From Candidatus Latescibacterota bacterium (GTDB taxonomy: Bacteria; Latescibacterota; UBA2968; GCA-2709665), in the NCBI GenBank assembly GCA_965219455.1, contig OZ244744.1, positions 5,312,001-5,376,000 on the forward strand: DNA of 64,000 bases, read 5' to 3'. The position numbers and the translations under genes are program-made. Below the pieces are notes generated by a model. The model was given only the letters and a program-made list of their open reading frames with translations. It was not told the origin of the DNA and ran no database searches. This document shows, piece by piece, positions 7,182 to 29,553 of this stretch; within the stretch, counting starts at the first letter, position 1, and the number at the start of each line of letters is the position of its first letter.

Positions 7182-10100
7182 CTATTGTGAACAATTCGGG
7201 CCACCGGTCTCCCTGATCCCCTGCAACCACGTCTGAAAGTCCGAATCGAGCGGCGCACACAGGCCTCCTTCCCCTCCGAAGTGAAATACCTCCAGCTTTG
7301 CAAGCGCCGTCAGGCTTTGAGGAAGCGCACCACTCAGCTGATTGAGGCTAAGCCATAGTTGAGTAAGGTTGGCCAGGTTGCCCAATTCCGAAGGTACCAT
7401 ACCGCTTAACCGATTGCCTGCAAGACTCAGTTCCTCCGTCAGGCTGGTCAGATTGCCCAATTCCGATGGAATCACGCCACTCAATTGATTTCCGCCAAGA
7501 TCTAGGTAAGTGAGACTGGTCAAATTGCCCAATTCTGTCGGGATCACTCCACTCAACCTATTGCTGTCGAGACCCAGAAACTCCAGGTTTGAGAGGTTCC
7601 CCAATTCTACGGGTATCGAACCCCTCAACTCGTTTCCGCTCAGATCCAACTCACTAAGATTGGACAGGTTCCCCAATTTAGCAGGAATCGTGCCACTCAA
7701 CTCATTGAAGTCCAGAGTCAGCTCCTTAAGGTCGGACAGGTTACCGAATTTCTCTGGAATACCACCACTCAGCTGATTGCCGCCAAGCCTCAAGCTCCTG
7801 AGGTCGGTGAGGTCTCCCAGTTCCGGGGGAACCTGACCGCTCAATGCATTGCCGCCAAGCTGCAGCTCCGTAAGATTGGTCAGGTCGCTCAGTTCCACGG
7901 GAATCGTTCCGCTCAACTGATTGGAGGGAAGATGCAGAACTTCAAGCTTGGTCAAATTGCCCAGTTCAGCCGGAAGCTCACCCGTCAAGTTATGGTTTCT
8001 CAGGTCAAGGTCTGTAACCCAACCGTTAGAAACGCCAACGCCATGCCAAGTGGAAATGTCATTGTCTGACAGCCAGTTGGTGTTGTTCGTCCAATTGTCT
8101 CCATCCGTCGCATTGTACAGCGCCACCAACGCCTCGCGCTGGGACTCCAGGGCGCAGGTCGGGCCGTTGGACTCTTTGATGCCCCGCAGCCATCGTTGAA
8201 AGGCTTCATCAGCCGGCGCGCACAAACCTGTGCCCTCAAAGAGGAATTTCTCCAGATTTGTCAGCCCTGTCAGGCTTTGAGGCAGCGTGCCCGCTAACGA
8301 CGCGCTGTACTGGAACTCCAATATCCTGAGGTTCGTCAGGTTACCCAGTTCCACGGGAATCGCACCGTTCAGCTGTGTACTCCAGAGTTTCAGTTCTGTG
8401 AGTTTGGACAAGCTCCCCAGTTCCACGGGAATGGCGCCACTCAACGGATTGCCGCCAAGTACCAGTACGCTGAGGCTGTCCAGGCCGCCCAGTTCCACAG
8501 GGATCGGACCGGTCAATTGATTGTCGTAAAGACCCAGCCGTGTGAGGTTGGATAAGCTGCTTAATTCCACGGGAATCGAACCGGTCAACTGATTGTCGCC
8601 AAGATTCAGGAAAGTGAGGTTGGATAAGCTGCTTAATTCCACGGGAATCGAACCACTCAACTGATTCCCAATTAGATACAGCAGTTCCAGGTTTTCCAGG
8701 TTGCTCAATTCGGATGGAATTGGTCCACCCAACTGATTCCCAATTAGATACATCCGTTCCAGGTTGGACAGGTTGCCCAATTCGGATGGAATTGGGCCAC
8801 TCAACTGGTTACCGTGAAGATACAGCTGCTCCAGGTTTTCCAGGTTACCCAATTCGGGTGGAATTGGGCCACTCAACTGATTCCCAATTAGATACATCCG
8901 TTCCAGGTTGGACAGGTTGCCCAATTCGGGTGGAATTGGACCGCTCAATTGCGTCTGGCTAAGAGTCAGATGCTCCAGGTTGGCCAGGTTGGACACTACG
9001 GACGGTATCGAGCCGCTAAACCCTTTTCCACCAAGTGAAAGGCGCTTCAACTTGGTCAGGTTGAACAATTCGGATGGTAGCGAGCCAACCGATTGAATCC
9101 CCGAGAGTATCAAAGTCTCCAGATTGATCAGGTTGAACAATTCGGATGGTATCGGGCCAACCAACTGTTCCGAGCTAAGAAACAGCGTCTCCAGGTTGGT
9201 CAGGTTGCCCAATTCCGGGGGTATCACGCCACTTAACTGATTCTGATCGAGGCTAAGATAAATCAGGTTGGATAGTTTGGCCAACTCGACGGGAATCGGC
9301 CCGCTCAACCCATTCCAGGCGAGGTTGAGAATCGTAAGGGAAGACAGATTACCCAGCTCCACGGGTATCGGCCCCGTCAACGCATTACCGTTGAGTTTCA
9401 GGCTGTCGAGGCTTGCCAGGCTGCTCAACTCCGGAGGGATCGGGCCGGTGAGATTGTTCCGGGACAGGCTCAAGCCCGTGACGCGACCGTTCCCCACTGT
9501 TACGCCGTGCCACGTATCGAGCGGGTTGTCCGTCAGCCAGTTGGTCTGGATCGTCCAGTTGTCCCCGCCGGTTGCGTTGTAAAGCGCCACCAGCACGTCG
9601 CGGTCCGGCGCCGTGGGGGTAGGCGGCGCCACTTCTTGTCCATATAGCCCCGCAAACGCCAGAAAATCCGAAAATCCTACGGCCCCGTCTCCGTCCAGGT
9701 CAAATCGCGCGTCGTAAGTCCCATCACCCTCTTGCGACCCATAGTTGCCCGCGAATTGCACAAAGTCAGTAAACCCAACCGTACCATCGCCGTCGAAATC
9801 CGGCGAAGGACCGGCCGGAAGGGGTCGCAGAACGACATTGATATTCGGCATCAAGGTTTCCTGTTGGCCGCCCCTGCCCAGCGTGGCTTCCACGAAACGG
9901 ATCGTCGTGCCCGTGAACGTGGCTGACGTGCGAAACCGGACCGTGCCGACGAGACCAGCCGTCGCTGCAGCCCGGCCGCCCATCGACGCGACGCCCAGGG
10001 TGACTGACGTCGGGTTCGTCCCGGTCTCCACAAGCACCTGGGCATTGGGAAACAGGTCGCCCGGGTCGGTACCGTCGTAGACGACCTGACCCGCATCGTA

Positions 10101-11665: not shown

Positions 11666-14600
11666 CTATTGCGAGCAATTCGGCCCTCCTTTGTCACTGA
11701 TTCCCTGTAGCCACGTCTGGAACGCCGTATCGAGCGGCGCACATAGCCCTCCTTCTCCCCCAAAGTGAAATATCTCCAGTTTCGTCAGGCTGGTAAGGCT
11801 CAGAGGAAGGGAACCACTCAACTGATTCTCGTTAAGATGCAGTTCAGTGAGATCTGTCAGGTTGCCCAATTCGACAGAAATCGTGCCACTTAACTGATTG
11901 CTCCAAAGAGATAGCGCCCTAAGGTTAGACAGGTTGCCCAATTCTGTTGGGATCCGACCACTCAAATTATTGTCTCCAAGATTCAGATCCGTAAGCTTGG
12001 AAAGGTTGCCCAACTCTGCTGGGATCGGACCTGTCAACTCATTTGCGACAAGATGCAGGACCTCAAGTTTGGGCAAGTTGCCCAATTCGACGGGTATCCC
12101 ACCGCCCAACCCATTTTTAGAAAGATGCAGGTCGGTGAGGTTTGTCAGATTGCCTAGTGACGCTGGTATACCCCCACTTAGTTGATTTTCGCCAAGACCC
12201 AGGAATTCGAGCTTGAAAAGGTTGCCCAATTCTGTTGGGATCGGACCACTCAAATTATTGTCGCCAAGATCCAGTTCCGTAAGATCGGACAGGTTGCCCA
12301 ATTCTGTTGGGATCGGACCTTTCAACTCATTTGCGATAATATGCAGAACCTCAAGTTTGAGCAAGTTGCCCAATTCCACGGGTATCCCACCGCTCAATTC
12401 ATTCTTGTACAGCCATAGGTGAGTAAGCTTGGAAAGGTTGCCCAATTCCACGGGAATTCGACCGCCCAACCCGTTTTGGGAAAGATGCAGGTGCGTGAGG
12501 TTTGTAAGATTGCTTAGTGACGCTGGTATACCCCCACTTAATTGATTGTCGCCAAGACCCAGGTAATCGAGCTTGGAAAGGTCGCCCAGTGCTACCGGGA
12601 TCGTTCCGCTCAACTGATTGAGTCTAAGGTCCAGAGTCAACAGGTTGGACAGATTCGCCAATTCGACGGGAATCGTACCACTCAACTCATTATCGTAAAG
12701 CCACAGGCGAGAAAGATTCGTCAGGTTGCCCAATTCCACGGGTATCTTTCCGCTTAACCCATTTTCGGGAAGATGCAGAGTCTCAAGGTTGGTCAGTTTG
12801 CCCAGTTCCACGGGCAGTTCACCCGTCAGATTATTATCTCTCATGTCCAGGTGTGTAACCCAACCGTTAGAAACCCCGACGCCATGCCACGTGGAAATGT
12901 CATTGTCTGACAGCCAGTTGGTGTTATTCGTCCAATTGTCTCCATCCGTCGCATTGTACAGCGCCACCAACGCCTCGCGCTGGGATTCCAGGGCGCAAGT
13001 CGGGCCGTTGGACTCTTTGATGCCCCGTAGCCAACGTTGAAAGGCTTCATCAGGCGGCGCGCACAGACCTGTGCCCTCGAAGAGAAATTTCTCCAGATTT
13101 TTCAGCCCTGTCAGGCTTTGAGGCAGCGTTCCCGCTAACGACGCGCTGTACTGGAACTCCAATATCTTGAGGTTTGTCAGGTTACCCAGTTCCACGGGAA
13201 CCGCCCCGTTCAGCTGTGTACTCCAGAGCTTCAGTTGTGTGAGTTTGGACAATCTCCCCAGTTCCACGGGAATCGAACCACTCAACGGATTGCCGCCAAG
13301 TACCAGTACGCTGAGGCTGTCCAGGCCACCCAGTTCCACAGGGATCGGACCGGTCAATTGATTGTCGTAAAGCCAGAGGTGTGTGAGGTTGGATAAGCTG
13401 CTTAATTCCACGGGAATCGAACCGGTCAACTGATTGTCGCCAAGATTTATGGCCCTGAGGTTTTCCAGGTTGCCCAATTCGGGTGGGATTGCACCGCTCA
13501 ACTGGTTAATGGAAAGATGCAGCCGTTCCAAGTTTTCCAGGTTGCCCAATTCGGGTGGGATTGCACCGCTCAACTGGTTAACGGTTAGATTCACCTGCTC
13601 CAGGTTTTCCAGGTTGCCCAATTCGGGTGGAATTGGGCCACTCAACTGATTGAAAAATAGATACAGCCGTTCCAGGTTTCCCAGGCTGCCCAATTCGGGT
13701 GGAATTGGACCGCTAAATTGCGTCTGGCTAAGATTCAGCTGCTCCAGGTTGGCCAGGTTGGACACTTCGGACGGTATCGAGCCGCTAAACCCTTTTCCGC
13801 CAAGTGAAAGGTGCGTCAACTTTGTCAGGTTGAACAATTCGGATGGTATCGAGCCAACCGATTGAATCCCCCGGAGGCTCAACCTCTCCAGATTGGTCAG
13901 GTTGCCCAATTTGGATGGTATGGGGCCAACCAACTGTTCCGAGCTAAGAAGCAGTGTCTCGAGGTTGGTCAGATTGCCCAATTCCGATGGTATCACGCCA
14001 CTCAGTTGATTGGAGGTTAGATACAGTCGCTTCAGGTTGGCCAGGTTGCCCAATTCCCGTGGAATCGGACCACTCAACTGACTGCCAAGGAACAGATTCT
14101 CCAGGTTGGTCAGGTTGCCCAATTCTGATGGTATCGTCCCACTCAACTGATTCTGATCAAGGCGCAGATACGTCAGGTTGGATAGTTTGGCCAACTCGAC
14201 TGGAATCGGCCCGCTCAACTCAGTCCGGACGACGTTGAGAATCGTAAGGGAAGCCAGATTACCTAACTCGATGGGTATCACTCCTCTCAACGCATTACCG
14301 TCGAGTTTCAGGCTGTCGAGGCTGGCCAGGCTGCCCAACTCGGGTGGGATCGGGCCGGTGAGATTGTTTCGGGACAGGCTTATCCCCGTGACCCGACCGT
14401 TCGCCGCGGTGACGCCGTGCCACGTATCGAGCGGGTTGTCCGTGAGCCAGTTGGTCTGGGTCGTCCAGTTGTCCCCGCCGGTTGCGTTGTAAAGCGCCAC
14501 CAGCACGTCACGGTCCGGCGCCGTGGGGGTGGGCGGCGCCACTTCTTGTCCGAATTGCCCGGCAAGTGCCAGGAAATCCGAAAATCCCACGGCCCCGTCT

Positions 14601-15280
14601 CCGTCCAGGTCAAACCTCGCGTCGTAAGTCCCATCACCCTCTTGCGACCCATAGTTGCCCGCGAATTGCACAAAGTCAGTAAACCCAACCGTACCATCCC
14701 CGTCAAAATCCGGCGAAGGCCCGGCCGGAACCGGTTGCAATTCAATATTGATATTCGGCATCACGGTTTCCTGTTGGCCGCCCCTGCCCAGCGTGGCTTC
14801 CACGAAACGGATCGTCGTGCCCGTGAACGTGGCTGACGTGCGAAACCGAACCGTGCCCACAAGGCCCGCTGACGCCGCGGCCCGACCGCCCATCGACGCA
14901 ATGCCCAACGTGACCGACGTCGGGTTCGTCCCGGTCTCCACCAGCACCTGGGCATTGGGAAACAGGTCGCCCGGGTCGGTACCGTCGTAGACGACCTGAC
15001 CCGCATCGTATACCAAACGAATGGACACGCCCTGCGCCTGGCTCACGTCGCTCGCGTAAACCTGGATGGAAACCGTCGTTTCAGGGGATACCTCCATCGC
15101 CGTGACCTCCTGGTCGCCGGCGGCGCCATCCACGTCCGCGGACAGTGAAAAACTGTTCTGTGACGAAAGAGACAGCGGGCTAAGCAAAAGGGCGATAAAT
15201 ATGATCGCACAGCCTGAGACAGGCGCGAAAATAAATTCCCCGTTCACGAAACATGTGAGACGATCTCGAAGCGCACGCAT
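11666..15280 (-). CDS. Secreted cohesin-like + dockerin/EF-hand + two-block plant-type LRR protein (paralog 2)
   Basis: Same architecture as 7182-10370 with 18+15 LRRs; SD AGGAG upstream of ATG 15280. Confidence 0.9.
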   Translation of the reverse strand: MRALRDRLTCFVNGEFIFAPVSGCAIIFIALLLSPLSLSSQNSFSLSADVDGAAGDQEVTAMEVSPETTVSIQVYASDVSQAQGVSIRLVYDAGQVVYDGTDPGDLFPNAQVLVETGTNPTSVTLGIASMGGRAAASAGLVGTVRFRTSATFTGTTIRFVEATLGRGGQQETVMPNINIELQPVPAGPSPDFDGDGTVGFTDFVQFAGNYGSQEGDGTYDARFDLDGDGAVGFSDFLALAGQFGQEVAPPTPTAPDRDVLVALYNATGGDNWTTQTNWLTDNPLDTWHGVTAANGRVTGISLSRNNLTGPIPPELGSLASLDSLKLDGNALRGVIPIELGNLASLTILNVVRTELSGPIPVELAKLSNLTYLRLDQNQLSGTIPSELGNLTNLENLFLGSQLSGPIPRELGNLANLKRLYLTSNQLSGVIPSELGNLTNLETLLLSSEQLVGPIPSKLGNLTNLERLSLRGIQSVGSIPSELFNLTKLTHLSLGGKGFSGSIPSEVSNLANLEQLNLSQTQFSGPIPPELGSLGNLERLYLFFNQLSGPIPPELGNLENLEQVNLTVNQLSGAIPPELGNLENLERLHLSINQLSGAIPPELGNLENLRAINLGDNQLTGSIPVELSSLSNLTHLWLYDNQLTGPIPVELGGLDSLSVLVLGGNPLSGSIPVELGRLSKLTQLKLWSTQLNGAVPVELGNLTNLKILEFQYSASLAGTLPQSLTGLKNLEKFLFEGTGLCAPPDEAFQRWLRGIKESNGPTCALESQREALVALYNATDGDNWTNNTNWLSDNDISTWHGVGVSNGWVTHLDMRDNNLTGELPVELGKLTNLETLHLPENGLSGKIPVELGNLTNLSRLWLYDNELSGTIPVELANLSNLLTLDLRLNQLSGTIPVALGDLSKLDYLGLGDNQLSGGIPASLSNLTNLTHLHLSQNGLGGRIPVELGNLSKLTHLWLYKNELSGGIPVELGNLLKLEVLHIIANELKGPIPTELGNLSDLTELDLGDNNLSGPIPTELGNLFKLEFLGLGENQLSGGIPASLGNLTNLTDLHLSKNGLGGGIPVELGNLPKLEVLHLVANELTGPIPAELGNLSKLTDLNLGDNNLSGRIPTELGNLSNLRALSLWSNQLSGTISVELGNLTDLTELHLNENQLSGSLPLSLTSLTKLEIFHFGGEGGLCAPLDTAFQTWLQGISDKGGPNCSQ

Positions 15281-15567
15281 GGTCTCCTACCTTTCTGATT
15301 TGACGCCTTCTGGTTGGTGGAAGAGACGATTTTGAATGGACGTAGTCAGACGGACACGAAACAGACCGGATATGAAAGTTGGAAGAATATTTAAATGAGT
15401 GCGCATGTTGCACTGACGCCGGGAGGCACTTGGGAAGTGATCTCTCAGAAATTCGCCCAGCGGGTTCTCGAGCGAACGCCATGGCGTATAGCGGGGTTCC
15501 TTGACCGCGACGAGGAATTCGATACGCCGGTTCGGTTCTCCGGATGCTCGATTCCGGTTCGCCACAA

Positions 15568-15596
15568 TTGACACCACGACACAGGTTCCATATATT
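15568..15596 (+). promoter_or_regulatory. sigma70-type promoter for candidate sRNA copy 1
   Basis: TTGACA (15568-15573), 17 bp, TATATT (15591-15596). Confidence 0.75.
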
Positions 15597-15602
15597 TACA
15601 GA

Positions 15603-15721
15603 TAGTGATGGCCGCATCCCGTCCCGTGGCGCTATATTGCCGGGGAACACGCGGGCTGTGGACCTTCTTGAATGACCGTCGGTTTTCGACTTTGCGCGTC
15701 AGGGAACCGGCGGTCTTTTTT
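15603..15721 (+). ncRNA. Candidate novel two-hairpin small RNA, copy 1
   Basis: Own promoter, a 5' stem with a compensatory pair versus copy 2, and a 3' hairpin GACCGTCGGTT...AACCGGCGGTC followed by T6. No ORF is conserved between copies. 5' end approximate. Confidence 0.6.
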
Positions 15722-15790
15722 GTGCTCGGGCTATCGCCTGGATGAGGGGTTCCGAATTGAACGGGTCGGATTTCTGACGCGTTCAGCCAC

Positions 15791-15828
15791 AATATAACAT
15801 AATAGTCGCAAATTGCAACTATTATGTT
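15791..15828 (-). promoter_or_regulatory. Leftward promoter overlapped by a 33-bp palindromic operator-like site, copy 1
   Basis: AACATAATAGT-cgcaaattgca-ACTATTATGTT (15796-15828); minus strand reads TTGCAA, 16 bp, TATATT with extended -10 TG. Confidence 0.6.
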
Positions 15829-15965
15829 TCTTTATAATTTTTACGGTTTTCTCTACTATTTCCGCAAATATATCCAAATTCGGCGGGGCTATACGTCGAT
15901 CTCTCCTCCATGTGCCCAACGGGATACTCTGCACCAGGGTTCAGAAGGTCGTGACAATGCCCACT

Positions 15966-16019
15966 GGAAACACGGTGGGACGGGTCACCCGGCCCACTCA
16001 TCAGCCGGGGGGAAACGGT
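15966..16019 (+). repeat. ~54-bp repeat containing a REP-like GTGG hairpin (second copy 17422-17475)
   Basis: GGAAACACGGTGGGACGGGTCACCCGGCCCACTCATCAGCCGGGGG versus GGAAGCACGGTGGGACGGGACGCCCGGCCCGCTGATCAGCTGGGGG. Confidence 0.7.
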
Positions 16020-16215
16020 TAATGATCGCGTATATGCGGCCATTGCAGGATCGGCCTGATGCGGCCGGCTGAGGATCGGTCTATTCGGGCTGCCTGGCGG
16101 CGCCGGTTTACGAGTTTCCGATAATTCTCGGGGATGCAATTGACTTTCTACGGCGATCCCGTATCTTGTTTATACGGAGCCGCCCCCTCTCTCCCAAGGC
16201 CGCAGGGCATCTTGC

Positions 16216-17133
16216 ATGGCAGAATTCGATGCGATCTCCAAACACCTGATTCAATCCTATCCCAACGACTTCGCCGGCTTCGCCCTCGGGCGAGAGGACG
16301 TTGAGGTCCTTGAAGTCATTGATACCGAGCAACTCACGGTATCGGCAAGCCGCGCCGACAGCCTCATTCGCGTCCGCATCGATGGCCGCGAGGTATTGGT
16401 CCACAACGAATTTCAAACGACCGACAGTACGAATCCGGACATGCCGCGACGCATGGCCGGTTATATCGGGCGCGCCATTGAACGTCATGGCGTGTCCGTC
16501 TACTCGAGCGTCATCTACTTGCGGCCCGATGCGGGCAAACGGGATCCGGGCCAATATCTTCAGTCGCATCCCGTGTACCGGGTGCACCTGCAGTACGGGG
16601 TGATTCGGCTGAGTGAACTGGATGGTCAAGAGATTCTCGATGCAGGACAGGCGGGGCTGATCGCCTTTGCTCCCCTGATGAGGCCTCCTGCTGGGATGGC
16701 TTCACGGGCATGGTTGCGCCACTGTATGCACACGGCTCATGCGCGGCCAATGGCTACGCCGGCAAAAGCCGACTACCTGGCCGGCATGTCGCTGCTCAGC
16801 GGGCTGGTGTACGCTCCGGAAACCATTTCTGATATTGTTTCGAAGGAGGGCATGATGGACCTCATACGCGAATCATCCTTTGCACAATACCTTACCCGGC
16901 AGGGCGTCGAGCAAGGGATCGAAAAAGGTATCGAACAAGGCGTTGAGCAAGGGCTCCGGGAGAGTATCCTCGCCGTACTGGAGACTCGATTCGATCTCCC
17001 TGCGTCGCATCCTCTTACTGCTCGCATTGAGACGATTGACAACGTCCAACGCCTTAAAGCGTTGCTTCGCACGGCGGTCAAGGTATCCAGTCCGGAGGAA
17101 TTCGGGCAATTGTTGGATCAGGAACGGCCCTGA
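16216..17133 (+). CDS. Rpn/YhgA-like PD-(D/E)xK nuclease (recombination-promoting nuclease family) with C-terminal EQG-repeat domain
   Basis: RADSLI...VHNEFQT...MPRRMAGY...SSVIYL motifs; QGVEQGIEKGIEQG repeats; promoter-like TTGACT-16-TATCTT at 16140-16167. Confidence 0.85.
   Translation: MAEFDAISKHLIQSYPNDFAGFALGREDVEVLEVIDTEQLTVSASRADSLIRVRIDGREVLVHNEFQTTDSTNPDMPRRMAGYIGRAIERHGVSVYSSVIYLRPDAGKRDPGQYLQSHPVYRVHLQYGVIRLSELDGQEILDAGQAGLIAFAPLMRPPAGMASRAWLRHCMHTAHARPMATPAKADYLAGMSLLSGLVYAPETISDIVSKEGMMDLIRESSFAQYLTRQGVEQGIEKGIEQGVEQGLRESILAVLETRFDLPASHPLTARIETIDNVQRLKALLRTAVKVSSPEEFGQLLDQERP
16855..17133 (+). CDS. Putative intragenic small protein (RpnS-like antitoxin), in frame within rpn
   Basis: Strong internal SD AAGGAGG (16843-16849) followed by in-frame ATG ATG (16852, 16855); 92 aa MDLIRESSFAQ...; matches the established Rpn internal-translation architecture. 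Confidence 0.65.
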   Translation: MDLIRESSFAQYLTRQGVEQGIEKGIEQGVEQGLRESILAVLETRFDLPASHPLTARIETIDNVQRLKALLRTAVKVSSPEEFGQLLDQERP

Positions 17134-17361
17134 TATCCATTCCTTGACGAAAAGCCGCTTCATCGTGCTGAAGAAGAACCGGGAAGAGATCCTCGTATCC
17201 ATCATCCTGCTCATCCGACTATCCTGAAAATCCTGATCCGGACAGTTTCCACCGCCACGGTCTCTTGCAGTCCTGGCAGCGCATACACCCTTTGATTTGC
17301 CTCCTCTTCCTGCTTGCTGGCGCCCGGACATGGTATTCTGAGCTTTCGATTTGATGAATGT

Positions 17362-17386
17362 GAGCAGACAAGAATGTCTGCTCCAC
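17362..17386 (-). repeat. REP-like palindrome (second copy 19565-19589)
   Basis: Minus strand GTGG-AGCAGACA-TTCT-TGTCTGCTC: GTRG tetranucleotide plus hairpin. Confidence 0.6.
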
Positions 17387-17603
17387 CTTTTCAAGTATTC
17401 CGACGATATCCTGTTCGGACCGGAAGCACGGTGGGACGGGACGCCCGGCCCGCTGATCAGCTGGGGGATAACGGTCGTGGACACGCGTGAGCGGCTCAGG
17501 CGTGGCGACGTGGAGACCACCGCCGAGACGATTTAGGGCAAAAAAACAGTGGTGGCGACACTCCGTGATCCCTTTCAGGGACGTCACCACCACTTCGAGC
17601 ACA

Positions 17604-17633
17604 CAAAAAAACGCCCAAGCGTTGAGCCCGGGC
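17604..17633 (-). terminator. Intrinsic terminator after the coiled-coil gene
   Basis: Minus strand GCCCGGGC-TCAAC-GCTTGGGC followed by G and a T-run. Confidence 0.7.
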
Positions 17634-17643
17634 TTCCTGTTTG

Positions 17644-18030
17644 TCACCTGCCCTGTTCTTCAAGAGCGGTAACCCTCCCGTCGAGATTCAACAGGGCATC
17701 CCTTATTGCCTCTTGTGCTTGGATTCGTGCTTTGTCAATCTCGATATCGACCTTGTCTGATTTCTCAAGAGTAGTGAGCCTTTTATTGAAACCCAGGAGC
17801 GCGCGCTTTATTCCCTCGTAGATATCCTTCTGCAGCCTGTCCAATCTCATGGACTGCTGAGCATCTTCCTCGAGCGTGCTGACCCGCTGCTCCAGCGAAT
17901 CCAACATGTCGAAGATCTCGGTATCGTGGTTGTCGGATTCCGACTCGGACGTACCTTACGTGAGCGCGATAAGCAGGCAGACAGCCACACAAGCCAGCAC
18001 GATGAACGTGAACAGATTCCTTCGCAACAT
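17644..18030 (-). pseudogene. Small secreted/anchored coiled-coil protein with an internal TAA
   Basis: SD GAGGAG then MLRRNLFTFIVLACVAVCLLIALT*GTSES..., continuing in frame into ORF 17644-17907. Stop at 17956-17958. Three R-h-x-x-h-E motifs. Confidence 0.7.
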
Positions 18031-18223
18031 CTATTGCTCCTCTCGCAATCAGTATGGAACGGGGTCGTACCCATTGTCGGATAGACCTTCTCGTATAGCG
18101 TCGCGCAGCCATTTCGACGATGCCTCCTTTATTGGCCCCGAACGTAAAACCAGGAATTGCCGCCGCTATGACACGCTGCAGATTCCCGGTACAGAGGTGG
18201 GTGGCATTTTAGGGATGGTTCGG

Positions 18224-18252
18224 TTGACATACGAGGGGAGTCTCGGTATCTT
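18224..18252 (+). promoter_or_regulatory. sigma70-type promoter for candidate sRNA copy 2
   Basis: TTGACA (18224-18229), 17 bp, TATCTT (18247-18252); spacer unrelated to copy 1. Confidence 0.75.
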
Positions 18253-18258
18253 TTAAAT

Positions 18259-18375
18259 AGATAGGCCGCATCCCATCCCCTGGCGCAATGGCGCTGTGGA
18301 ACACGTGGGCTGTGGACCTTTTTGGATGACCGTCGGTTTTCGACTTTGCGCGTCAGGGAACCGGCGGTCTTTTTT
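18259..18375 (+). ncRNA. Candidate novel two-hairpin small RNA, copy 2
   Basis: As copy 1; terminator hairpin 18328-18369 identical, plus T6. Confidence 0.6.
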
Positions 18376-18444
18376 GTGCTCGGGCTATCGCCTGGATGAC
18401 GGGTTTCGAATTGAACGGGTCGGATTTCTGACGCGTCCAGCAAC

Positions 18445-18482
18445 AATATAACATAATAGTTGCACATTGAAACTATTATGTT
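18445..18482 (-). promoter_or_regulatory. Palindromic operator-like site and leftward -10 box, copy 2
   Basis: AACATAATAGTT-gcacattga-AACTATTATGTT (18450-18482). Confidence 0.6.
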
Positions 18483-18608
18483 TTTTTATGTTTTTATCTA
18501 CTAATTCCGTACAATATATACAAATTCGGCGGGACTATACGTCGATCGCTCCTCCATGTGCCCAACGGGATACTCTGCACCAGGGTTCAGAAGGTCGTGA
18601 CAATGTCC

Positions 18609-19335
18609 ATCGGGTGCACGTGCAGTACAGGGTGATTCGGCTGAGTGAACTCAATGGTCAAGAGATTCTCGATGCAGGACAGGCGGGGCTGATCGCCTTT
18701 GCTCCCTTGATGAGGCCCCCTCAAGGGATGGCTTCACGGGCATGGTTGCGGCACTGTATGCACGCGGCTCATACGCGGCCAATGGTTACGCCGTCAAAAG
18801 CCGACTATCTGGCCGGCATGTCGCTGCTCAGCGGGCTGGTGTACGCTCCGGAAACCATTTCTGAAATTGTTTCGAAGGAGGGCACGATGGACCTCATACG
18901 CGAATCATCCTTTGCACAATACCTTACCCGCCAGGGCGTCGTGCAAGGGATCGAGCAGGGGATCGAACAGGGGATCGAACAAGGCGTTGAGCAAGGGCTC
19001 CGGGAGAGTATCCTCGCCGTACTGGAGATTCGATTCGATCTCCCTGCGTCGCATCCTCTGACTGCTCGCATTGAGACGATTGACAAACGCCTTAACAGCC
19101 CGTTGAAAAAGTCCATCCGGGCTGCGTTCGGCCCTTGTGGCCGAAATACTGCGTTGCACTCCCTCCCCGAATCCCCCGATTCGACGCGGTCGCGCGCCTT
19201 GTCTTCGGCCACAATGACTCGGCCTCGCCTGCAGAGCGACTTTATCAACAGACTGTTAAAGCGTTGCTTCGCACGGCGGTCAAGGTATCCAGTCCGGAGG
19301 AATTCGGGCAATTGTTGGATCAGGAACGGCCCTGA
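18609..19335 (+). pseudogene. rpn paralog lacking the N-terminal nuclease half and disrupted by a MITE
   Basis: Matches rpn from RVHxQY onward; internal SD plus ATG (18887) retained; MITE at 19096-19255 shifts the frame. Confidence 0.85.
19096..19255. mobile_element. 160-bp MITE (IS5/IS1182-like ends)
   Basis: TIRs CAGCCCGTTGAAAAAGTC / GACTTTATCAACAGACTG; TTAA on both sides; empty site CCTTAAAGC visible in rpn copy 1 at ~17052. Confidence 0.9.
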
Positions 19336-19640
19336 TATCCATTCCTTGACGAAAAGCCGCTTCATCGTGCTGAAGAAGAACCGAGAAGAGATCCCTCGTA
19401 TCCATCATCCTGCTCATCCGACCATCCTGAAAATCCTGATCCGGACAGTTTCCACCGCCACGGTCTCTTGCAGTCCTGGCAGCGCCTAAACCCGTCGATT
19501 TATCTCCTCCTCCTGCTTGCTAGCGCCCGGACATGGTATTCTGAGGTTTCGGTTAGATGTATGTGAGCAGACAAGAATGTCTGCTCCACCTTTTCAAGTA
19601 TTCCGACGATATCCTGTTCAGCCCGATCGCTTTTGAACGG

Positions 19641-19684: not shown

Positions 19685-19761
<77 letters not shown>

Positions 19762-28269: not shown

Positions 28270-29553
28270 TTAACGCTTTGTTTTTATGTGTTCTAAAAAC
28301 TTATCGATGTTGTCGGACGGCAGGACGGTCTGTACACCCGTTGCCAGGTTTTTCAACACAACGGTTTTCGACCTTAATTCGTCGGGTCCGATGATGGTTA
28401 CAAACGGGATCCCTTTACGGTGCGCGTATTTCAGTTGCCGGTCCAGTCGCTGGCCGGGCCTCAGACCCAGTTCGACGGCGAGCCCGCGGGATCGGGCCAC
28501 CCGCGCAAATCCGGCGGCGTGTTCGGCCATGTCTTCGGAAAAGACCGTAACCAGCACGTCTGCGATGGGAGCGCTTACGTCGGCAAGCAAATCCGATTCT
28601 TTCAACAGTTCGGTAACTGCCATGTCGCCAACGGCAAAGCCCACGCCGGGAACCGGCCTTTTGCCACCGACCTGAAGGGTCAGATTGTCGTATCGCCCGC
28701 CGCCGAACAAGGCGCGCCTGAGGGAATTTTTCGCCCAGGCTTCAAAAACAATGCCGGTGTAGTAGTCGAACCCACGCACGATTTTCAGGTCGGGTTCCAC
28801 GTATTCGGATACATTGTTCTTTTCAAGCAACCGGATGACCCGTTCAAGCCATGGCGAGAATCCCGGGTCTTTGCTCTCCAGGGTCTTTACAAGTTCGTCG
28901 ATCTGTTTTGAACTCAGGCCGAGGCTTTCCAGGTCGGCGCTGAATTTTCCGAAGGGCATCTTGTCGATCCGGTCGACAATGGAGAACAGCGGCCGAATCT
29001 GCCCGGAGGAAAGGCCCAGAGAGCGAATGAGGTGGCATTCGAGATCCTGCCGGTTATTCAGCCTCACCGACACCTTATCCGGAGGCAATCCGAGGATCTT
29101 GAACAGTTCACAGGCGATCGTGATGATTTCGACGTCGGCATAGAGGGTATCGATTCCGAGCAGATCGATGTTCCATTGAAAGAATGACCGCCCCCTGCCG
29201 CGCTGCGGGCGTTCGTACCGGTAGAAACGTCCGTAGGATTGCCAGCGCAAAGGAAAAACAAGCCGATCCTCCTGTTGGGCTACCATGCGGGCGAGCGTGG
29301 GCGTAAGCTCGGGACGAAGAACCAGGGTTTTCTCGTCGCGGCTGGCCAATGAGAACGTCTGCCGGCCCACGATCTCCTCGCTGGTCTTACCCAGGTAGAG
29401 GTCCATGTATTCAACGATTGGACCCTCGTATTCCTGGTAGCCGAAACCGGCGCCAAGCGCGATGCACTTTTCACCGAGCCATTTTTGTAGGGCCCAGTCT
29501 TCAGGGTAAAAATCCCTGACTCCTTTGACGCGAGGGATCAGTTCATTCGCCAT
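28270..29553 (-). CDS. hisS: Histidine--tRNA ligase
   Basis: KGVRDF, LRPELT, YRYERPQRGR, RGFDYYTG, GGGRYD. Confidence 0.97.
   Translation of the reverse strand: MANELIPRVKGVRDFYPEDWALQKWLGEKCIALGAGFGYQEYEGPIVEYMDLYLGKTSEEIVGRQTFSLASRDEKTLVLRPELTPTLARMVAQQEDRLVFPLRWQSYGRFYRYERPQRGRGRSFFQWNIDLLGIDTLYADVEIITIACELFKILGLPPDKVSVRLNNRQDLECHLIRSLGLSSGQIRPLFSIVDRIDKMPFGKFSADLESLGLSSKQIDELVKTLESKDPGFSPWLERVIRLLEKNNVSEYVEPDLKIVRGFDYYTGIVFEAWAKNSLRRALFGGGRYDNLTLQVGGKRPVPGVGFAVGDMAVTELLKESDLLADVSAPIADVLVTVFSEDMAEHAAGFARVARSRGLAVELGLRPGQRLDRQLKYAHRKGIPFVTIIGPDELRSKTVVLKNLATGVQTVLPSDNIDKFLEHIKTKR

Follow-up and report, generated by a model that had tools for sequence, protein, structure and literature searches.

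Does the intergenic DNA upstream of an rpn-like gene in this Latescibacterota genome encode a small RNA (sRNA), and if so, which gene might that RNA act on? A sequence-only reading of the window, that is, of the whole 64-kb stretch of DNA analysed here, had described a candidate novel sRNA that is present twice, follows conserved promoter boxes, ends in a terminator and is carried by an rpn-linked module. The reading favoured here, to which a probability of about one half is assigned, is that of a cis-antisense sRNA that would be encoded in the leader of the gene facing it and would have spread as a portable promoter-leader cassette. It is built on comparisons of sequence and gene arrangement.

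Two copies of a structured RNA in the window

In each window copy the sRNA sequence of about 117 nt begins approximately 7 nt past the -10 box of a promoter (Table 1) whose boxes and 17-bp spacing are kept at 15568-15596 and 18224-18252, while the spacers are unrelated. TTGACA-N17-TATNTT sites occur three times in the window against an expectation of 0.01, and none of 100 shuffles reaches three. The third site (29632-29604, minus strand) lies upstream of hisS (28270-29553, minus strand; TIGR00442, 301.7 bits with a cut-off of 286.75), as the sequence-only reading had pointed out, and this promoter type therefore serves a housekeeping gene in the Latescibacterota host. Both copies are more stable than shuffled sequences (0/200 shuffles equal either fold), and copy 1 reaches -56.4 kcal/mol in the sense orientation vs -42.5 kcal/mol in the antisense orientation. 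Copy 1 has CCCGT/GCGGG where copy 2 has CCCAT/GTGGG; this G:C to A:U swap is paired in both minimum-energy folds, the apical hairpins of the two copies are unlike each other, and the 3' hairpin with its T6 run is identical (15674-15721 and 18328-18375). The swap, the unlike apices and the identical 3' ends had been noticed beforehand, and the results support a predicted plus-strand structured RNA of about 117 nt with its own putative promoter, a terminator and a variable apex. The terminator needs one correction: the hairpin and T6 are present, but the 42-nt, bulged and strongly conserved hairpin is not a plain terminator.

The description of the RNA as present twice holds for the window but partly reflects segmental duplication, as copies 1 and 2 sit in a longer repeat in which 15610-15974 corresponds to 18264-18620 and 16579-17422 to 18611-19625, and the genome as a whole carries 13-14 copies. 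A tRNA gene (19688-19761, minus strand) lies directly past the second repeat module, which ends near 19625.

Table 1 Positions in the window of the two sRNA copies, their signals and the adjoining genes
Feature	Position	Strand	Remarks
Cohesin and LRR protein gene	11666..15280	-	1204 aa; Pfam LRR_1, LRR_14, LRR_4, LRR_8, Cohesin; AGGAG before ATG
Regulator remnant	15287..15577	-	Open, 96 codons; GTG start overlaps sRNA -35 box; stop 6 nt before LRR ATG
sRNA copy 1 promoter	15568..15596	+	TTGACA-17-TATATT; 11/12 in promoter scan
sRNA copy 1	15603..15721	+	Covariance-model match 15605-15721, 108.7 bits; -56.4 kcal/mol, z -4.06
Copy 1, 5' hairpin	15607..15667		
Copy 1, linker	15668..15673		
Copy 1, 3' hairpin	15674..15715		
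Copy 1, T6	15716..15721		
X block of copy 1	15722..15880		Small hairpin, AT-rich palindrome, AT-rich tract
Opposite-strand promoter-like site	15791..15818	-	TTGCAA-16-TATATT with TG; points back through sRNA gene to LRR gene
rpn-like gene	16216..17133	+	305 aa; downstream of copy 1; own promoter-like site 16140-16167
sRNA copy 2 promoter	18224..18252	+	TTGACA-17-TATCTT
sRNA copy 2	18259..18375	+	Covariance-model match 105.1 bits; -53.8 kcal/mol, z -4.19
X block of copy 2	18376..18530		Weakened opposite boxes TTTCAA-16-TATATT at 18472-18445 (-), missed by regex

A family of sRNAs in Latescibacterota

The source genome, a single contig of 5.84 Mb rated 100% complete, contains 13 copies of the sRNA by blastn and 14 matches to a covariance model that was built from 12 of these copies. 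The copy at 1671347 is degenerate in its 5' half, and the match at 1059197 is weak. A strict regular expression finds TTGA(C/A)A-17-TATATT at the same distance from the RNA in 11 of the 13 genomic copies, and the same boxes are equally placed in 24/36 members of the family, which range in length from 83 to 130 nt.

Beyond the source genome two models were searched against related genomes. Model R1 finds the RNA in 10/61 genomes with the source genome counted: 6/14 further genomes of the genus, 8/21 genomes of the family and 1/31 of the sister family. Model R2, built from all members, extends this to 13/132 genomes of the class, or 12/131 without the source genome, with 10/21 and 2/31 in two families of one order and 0/79 in two other families, counts that may include misses since covariance searches use strict filters and score few candidates. 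Scans with a pattern for the 3' hairpin yielded few new sequences: ten stretches when one genome per species was covered, all in records of Candidatus Latescibacterota metagenome-assembled genomes except for one of Gemmatimonadota, and only four stretches in JGI metagenomes.

Rfam 15 matched only two tRNAs across the whole window at the gathering threshold. When the interval 15000-19000 was searched with E values up to 10 the sole overlap was Bp1_684 on the opposite strand, at 16.5 bits against a threshold of 44, and the same search of seven related loci with E up to 1 gave nothing at the sRNA positions. No family thus matches either window copy, and a limited search of the literature found no description of sRNAs in the uncultured phylum Latescibacterota. 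The core of the sequence-only reading, a functional sRNA absent from Rfam, is supported.

Fold, strand and coding potential

RNAalifold recovers a two-hairpin fold on plain MAFFT alignments. About 60 nt make up the 5' domain, a hairpin with four helical segments, an A-rich internal loop and a variable apex, and distant members carry a shorter unrelated hairpin in its place. The 3' hairpin (consensus ACCGUCGGUUUUCGACUCUGGCNGGUCAGGGAACCGACGGU) is the signature of the family and is kept from the short to the long form. Its loops and bulges are conserved well past the needs of a terminator or of plain antisense pairing, which may point to a binding protein or to action in trans.

Compensatory changes are present among homologues: in an alignment of 37 distinct members 90.5% of cells pair, 23 of the 41 pairs show double changes, none of 500 shuffles reaches any of five covariation measures and slid controls are 36-51% paired, but these strong figures all come from an alignment fitted to the model, which leans towards structure. 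Compensatory changes are more modest (5/30 pairs) when 22 full-length members are aligned without the model, and covariation among the 12 copies of the source genome alone is not significant, with two double-changed pairs that shuffles equal. The sense strand is the more stable one in all 37 distinct members (means -50.7 vs -39.3 kcal/mol), because many pairs are G-U and turn into A-C on the opposite strand.

The element is non-coding. Single-base insertions and deletions separate the copies. No open reading frame of at least 12 codons is common in frame, start and stop to the 13 genomic copies on either strand, in agreement with the earlier statement that the two window copies share none. A coding frame across the 3' hairpin (..RRFST..) was considered and rejected owing to 1-nt indels and varying starts and stops.

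Another idea is that the element could work in cis as the leader of whichever gene follows it on its own strand, for instance as a riboswitch or attenuator, or else could supply the antitoxin RNA of a type I toxin-antitoxin system. An attenuator would indeed have this layout, with promoter, structured RNA and terminator ahead of a gene, and the convergent promoters of many copies resemble type I loci. The genes downstream on the same strand are however unrelated or absent (rpn-like, AAA-ATPase/PDDEXK_9, WD40 or none), the merR/sigma loci described below have a convergent gene in next position, a conserved small frame is lacking on both strands of the 13 copies, and the copies differ by 1-nt indels. 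This is the least probable of the explanations, at a few chances in a hundred.

Repeats and the rpn-like neighbour

The proposal that the RNA is carried by an rpn-linked module is not borne out in the rest of the genome. An rpn-like gene lies downstream of just three of the 13 copies, a closely related trio made up of copy 1, copy 2 (where the gene is truncated) and the copy at 5655976, and the rpn-like genes at 5076488 and 5307822 have no sRNA copy alongside. The identity of the gene is itself weak, as it has no Pfam match and reaches 22.2 bits against TIGR01784, with a cut-off of 52.1. The rpn-like gene is a neighbour of copy 1 and stands outside the RNA unit.

Several repeats were noted around it. 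A 57-nt direct repeat (15963-16019 and 17419-17475, 84% identical) brackets the intact rpn-like gene and has just three blastn matches genome-wide. The second rpn-like copy is without an equivalent of 15975-16578, which includes the first approximately 120 codons, and has been interrupted by a MITE-like repeat of about 165 nt (19085-19254). This repeat has 93 blastn matches, the great majority of the 60 listed being near full length at 88-97% identity, and one of them lies downstream of the sRNA copy at 3054873. Two other sRNA copies are followed by genes with AAA-ATPase_like and PDDEXK_9 domains (L020:5007-6608 and L021:5119-6696), a second nuclease-type neighbour beside the rpn-like gene. 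A 548-aa open reading frame without Pfam match (L017:5669-7315, minus strand, equal to 1669668-1671314 of the source genome) sits exactly between the degenerate copy at 1671347 and its downstream block (1669458-1669617) and looks like the insertion of a mobile gene.

In such a repeat-rich genome, as the 93 matches of the MITE-like element illustrate, the sRNA copies could be debris, an intergenic piece without a function of its own that segmental duplication or a mobile element has multiplied. The repeat unit does include a piece of a regulator pseudogene and its flanks, and there are degenerate copies (1671347, 1059197) as well as downstream blocks that stand alone. Debris would hardly be expected to persist as single-copy, syntenic members in five genera, to keep its promoter at a fixed distance or to show compensatory changes, and this explanation is considered quite improbable.

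The sRNA between merR and sigma factor genes

The short members of the family (83-99 nt) have a MerR-family gene on one side and a gene for a group-2 sigma-70-family protein of about 280 aa on the other. The two genes are co-directional and the RNA occupies the other strand of their 100-190-nt spacer. This order is found in genomes G015, G016, G017, G018 and G050 and in three metagenome contigs, the latter with one and the same sequence at the locus, and merR followed by an opposite-strand sRNA and the sigma gene was seen in 6 of the 11 loci examined. No U run was seen by eye on the merR strand of the hairpin. These members are single-copy, syntenic and span five genera. The short merR/sigma form is probably ancestral, and the RNA family apparently originated beside the sigma factor.

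The sigma orthologue of the source genome (2190284) was rejected as a further sRNA locus; the sequence upstream of it holds only a degenerate look-alike at 7.8 bits. Besides this orthologue the genome encodes six more group-2 sigma paralogues of 40-44% identity, and a MerR partner was not found there with the query used (E 1e-8).

Response regulators, their remnants and surface-protein genes

A second context is provided by AraC-type response regulators, from which the RNA is divergent in the source genome (copy at 1376706) and in genomes G006, G011, G012 and G013; regulators at least 45% identical adjoin the RNA in these four other genomes. The ATG or GTG start of the regulator overlaps the -35 hexamer of the RNA (TTGACAT/C read backwards) in all five regulator-linked loci, and three of the five offer no later start codon ahead of the receiver domain. 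More distant paralogues of the regulator (in G009, G003, G058 and G017, and the second copy of G013) have no RNA alongside, the best match being 8.8 bits in a search run with filters off. The RNA also occurs without this regulator, in G002, G014 and G015. A histidine kinase downstream of a regulator-linked copy was tried as a linked gene and dropped, as it is not conserved in other genomes. In the source genome two sRNA copies bracket the intact regulator (L015:7495-7613 and 8707-8824, at 1375494 and 1376706), one of them head-to-head at its start and the other, which immediately follows an rpn-like fragment, convergent with its 3' end.

In the dispersed copies a remnant of the AraC-type regulator lies upstream of the RNA promoter. 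The remnant at copy 1 can be aligned by BLASTP to the intact regulator (L015:7910-8680) in two parts, residues 2-29 with residues 1-28 (46%) and residues 14-93 with residues 120-203 (33%, E 5e-12). Directly behind it, and head-to-head with copy 1, comes the gene for a large protein with cohesin and LRR domains, which shows a 72-nt (24-codon) tandem periodicity at 13159-14357 with at least 13 units that are 61-100% alike. The frame of the remnant continues into the large protein in four other copies. Altogether 10 of the 13 copies face a gene head-to-head, in eight cases one for an LRR, fn3 or cadherin protein, and a cohesin-type N-terminus is common to five of these eight. Copies in G006 and G013 are placed likewise, facing fn3 (L044), LRR (L045) and Big_9/He_PIG (L040) proteins. 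The general linkage of the family is thus to the facing head-to-head gene, whose product is either a regulator (sigma factor or response regulator) or a large surface protein.

The overlap of the facing start codon with a near-consensus -35 box raises the question of whether the promoters alone matter. A strong sRNA promoter could compete with the facing gene or occlude its expression, and the RNA would then be a by-product. This leaves no role for the conserved body of the RNA, its compensatory changes and its strong strand bias in folding, nor for the retention of the 3' hairpin from the short to the long form while the 5' domain was replaced, and such a reading is therefore held to be unlikely.

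The downstream block and the opposite strand

The cis-antisense reading calls for a transcript that enters the sRNA gene from the other side. A block of about 160 nt past the terminator, termed X, is common to most of the dispersed copies and to copies in other genomes, and six X blocks occur without a good sRNA. Its minus strand shows TTGnAT-16/17-TATATT after a conserved AT-rich tract in the alignment, and in 17/36 copies the -10 box ends 63-81 nt past the 3' end of the sRNA; the promoter scan found the site independently in L018 as well. At copy 1 the site matches the consensus in 9 of 12 positions and is the sole minus-strand sigma-70-like site that the scan reports between 15281 and 16300. 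No minus-strand promoter-like site was seen in the GC-rich sRNA body or between sRNA and facing gene in the loci scanned, and the stretch from 15791 to 15280 holds no minus-strand terminator-like site. The five intact-regulator loci are without the X block, and their nearest minus-strand candidates are weak and 225-320 nt away. By eye, the X-only block at 1268583-1268735 has no clear promoter boxes, and a plus-strand promoter in the AT-rich block was dropped for its poor spacing.

Proposed antisense control of the facing gene

It is proposed that a sigma-70-type promoter of its own would drive the sRNA, with the long conserved hairpin and U run as terminator. The sRNA gene would be embedded, on the other strand, in the 5' leader of the facing gene or in the intercistronic spacer before it. 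This facing gene may be a group-2 sigma gene behind a MerR-type gene, an AraC-type regulator gene or a surface-protein gene joined to the regulator remnant. The facing start codon lies on the -35 box or within about 45 nt of it, and the facing mRNA is therefore expected to begin in or beyond the RNA gene. To judge from this geometry the facing transcript would cross the sRNA gene, and the sRNA would be fully complementary to the facing leader or to the merR-sigma spacer. Convergent transcription from the sRNA promoter may interfere with the facing gene, and pairing of sRNA and leader, probably with cleavage by RNase III, which is encoded in the source genome, would hold down or gate its expression. 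Exact runs shared between copies measure 11-86 nt (median 18, 78 pairs), so that the sRNAs could also act on the leaders of sister copies. Facing genes could alternatively start at non-consensus promoters, or at ones that give short leaders, coinciding in part with the sRNA promoter, and the two RNAs would then not overlap.

Action at a distance is an alternative explanation. Like Qrr or OxyS, the sRNAs could act in trans and pair with distant mRNAs, with the CU-rich linker CCUUCCUGG as a possible short seed, and the divergent regulator beside which each is encoded, a sigma factor or response regulator, might control them. That multiple near-identical copies retain their promoters would agree with this, as would the RNA adjoining regulators in conserved loci, the conserved linker and loops, and the TCGAT..CCGGTTCG repeats seen by eye upstream of the -35 box. 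The linker CCUUCCUGGAU is indeed conserved, yet the CU-rich stretch is mostly paired in helix P1. Neither Hfq (PF17209) nor ProQ (PF04352) gave a match in the 100%-complete source genome, with searches to which control genomes responded, and G002, G014 and G015 have the RNA without the regulator. Action in trans would also leave the overlap of the facing start codon and the -35 box unexplained, and it is regarded as possible, with perhaps one chance in four.

A broader version of the cis-antisense reading is more speculative and rather doubtful. A cassette composed of an outward promoter, a leader with a convergent antisense sRNA gene and the start of a decayed regulator would have been recruited repeatedly to eukaryote-like LRR, fn3, cadherin, cohesin and dockerin surface genes. 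The sRNAs would then form one cross-reacting network that could set surface display or switch it bistably, and their origin would be an antisense RNA guarding a stress sigma factor.

For sponge-associated Latescibacterota, excerpts of the literature discuss a role of large repeat-domain surface proteins in interaction with the host. The family provides a testable handle on the control of a group-2 sigma factor, of a two-component regulator and above all of such surface proteins, and a regulatory unit that is copied with a pseudogene fragment and re-used as a cassette would be an uncommon and traceable route of regulatory evolution. If only the plain reading is true, the family is one more lineage-specific group of sRNAs, worthy of an Rfam entry.

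Comparison with known systems

The merR/sigma loci recall GadY of E. coli, a single-copy, Hfq-binding cis-antisense sRNA encoded in the spacer between gadX and gadW, which has been proposed to base-pair with the transcript of the operon and so to guide its processing by RNase III. In both cases the sRNA gene occupies the opposite strand of a spacer between two co-directional regulator genes. The sRNAs are unlike GadY in that there is no relation in sequence or structure, the family is multicopy and Hfq was not found in the source genome.

The regulator-linked loci invite comparison with Qrr1-5 and the luxO-qrr1 pair, OxyR-OxyS and SgrR-SgrS, whose sRNAs are trans-acting, rely on Hfq and use conserved single-stranded seeds. 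Shared features are paralogous copies with conserved promoters, one of them divergent beside a regulator gene. The present family differs from these systems by the overlap of the neighbour's start codon with the sRNA promoter, and again by the lack of a detectable Hfq.

The dispersed copies are reminiscent of the Correia elements of Neisseria, which are portable, promoter-bearing repeats. Both are short repeated units with promoter-like boxes that lie upstream of diverse genes. No bounding inverted repeats were seen in the present unit, in which, unlike in Correia elements, part of a pseudogene accompanies the gene of a structured RNA, and which probably has a single-copy, syntenic ancestor.

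Further parallels in arrangement are AsflhD of E. coli and MtlS of Vibrio cholerae, which the available excerpts of their reports describe as antisense RNAs to 5' leaders whose regulation is linked with target transcription and RNase III (PMC9600491; PMC6597380). The likeness is that of a short RNA arising on the other strand from within a 5' leader region, here judged from geometry. As far as these excerpts go, AsflhD and MtlS are single loci of well-studied bacteria, whereas the family described here is a multiplied unit that faces unrelated genes and has a conserved long 3' hairpin.

Judged by sequence and predicted structure, neither of which matches, and with no Hfq found, the family belongs to none of the sRNA systems compared. 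What is new is the family itself, its putative dispersal, along with part of a pseudogene, as a promoter-leader cassette before large surface-protein genes, and its apparent origin at the side of a sigma factor.
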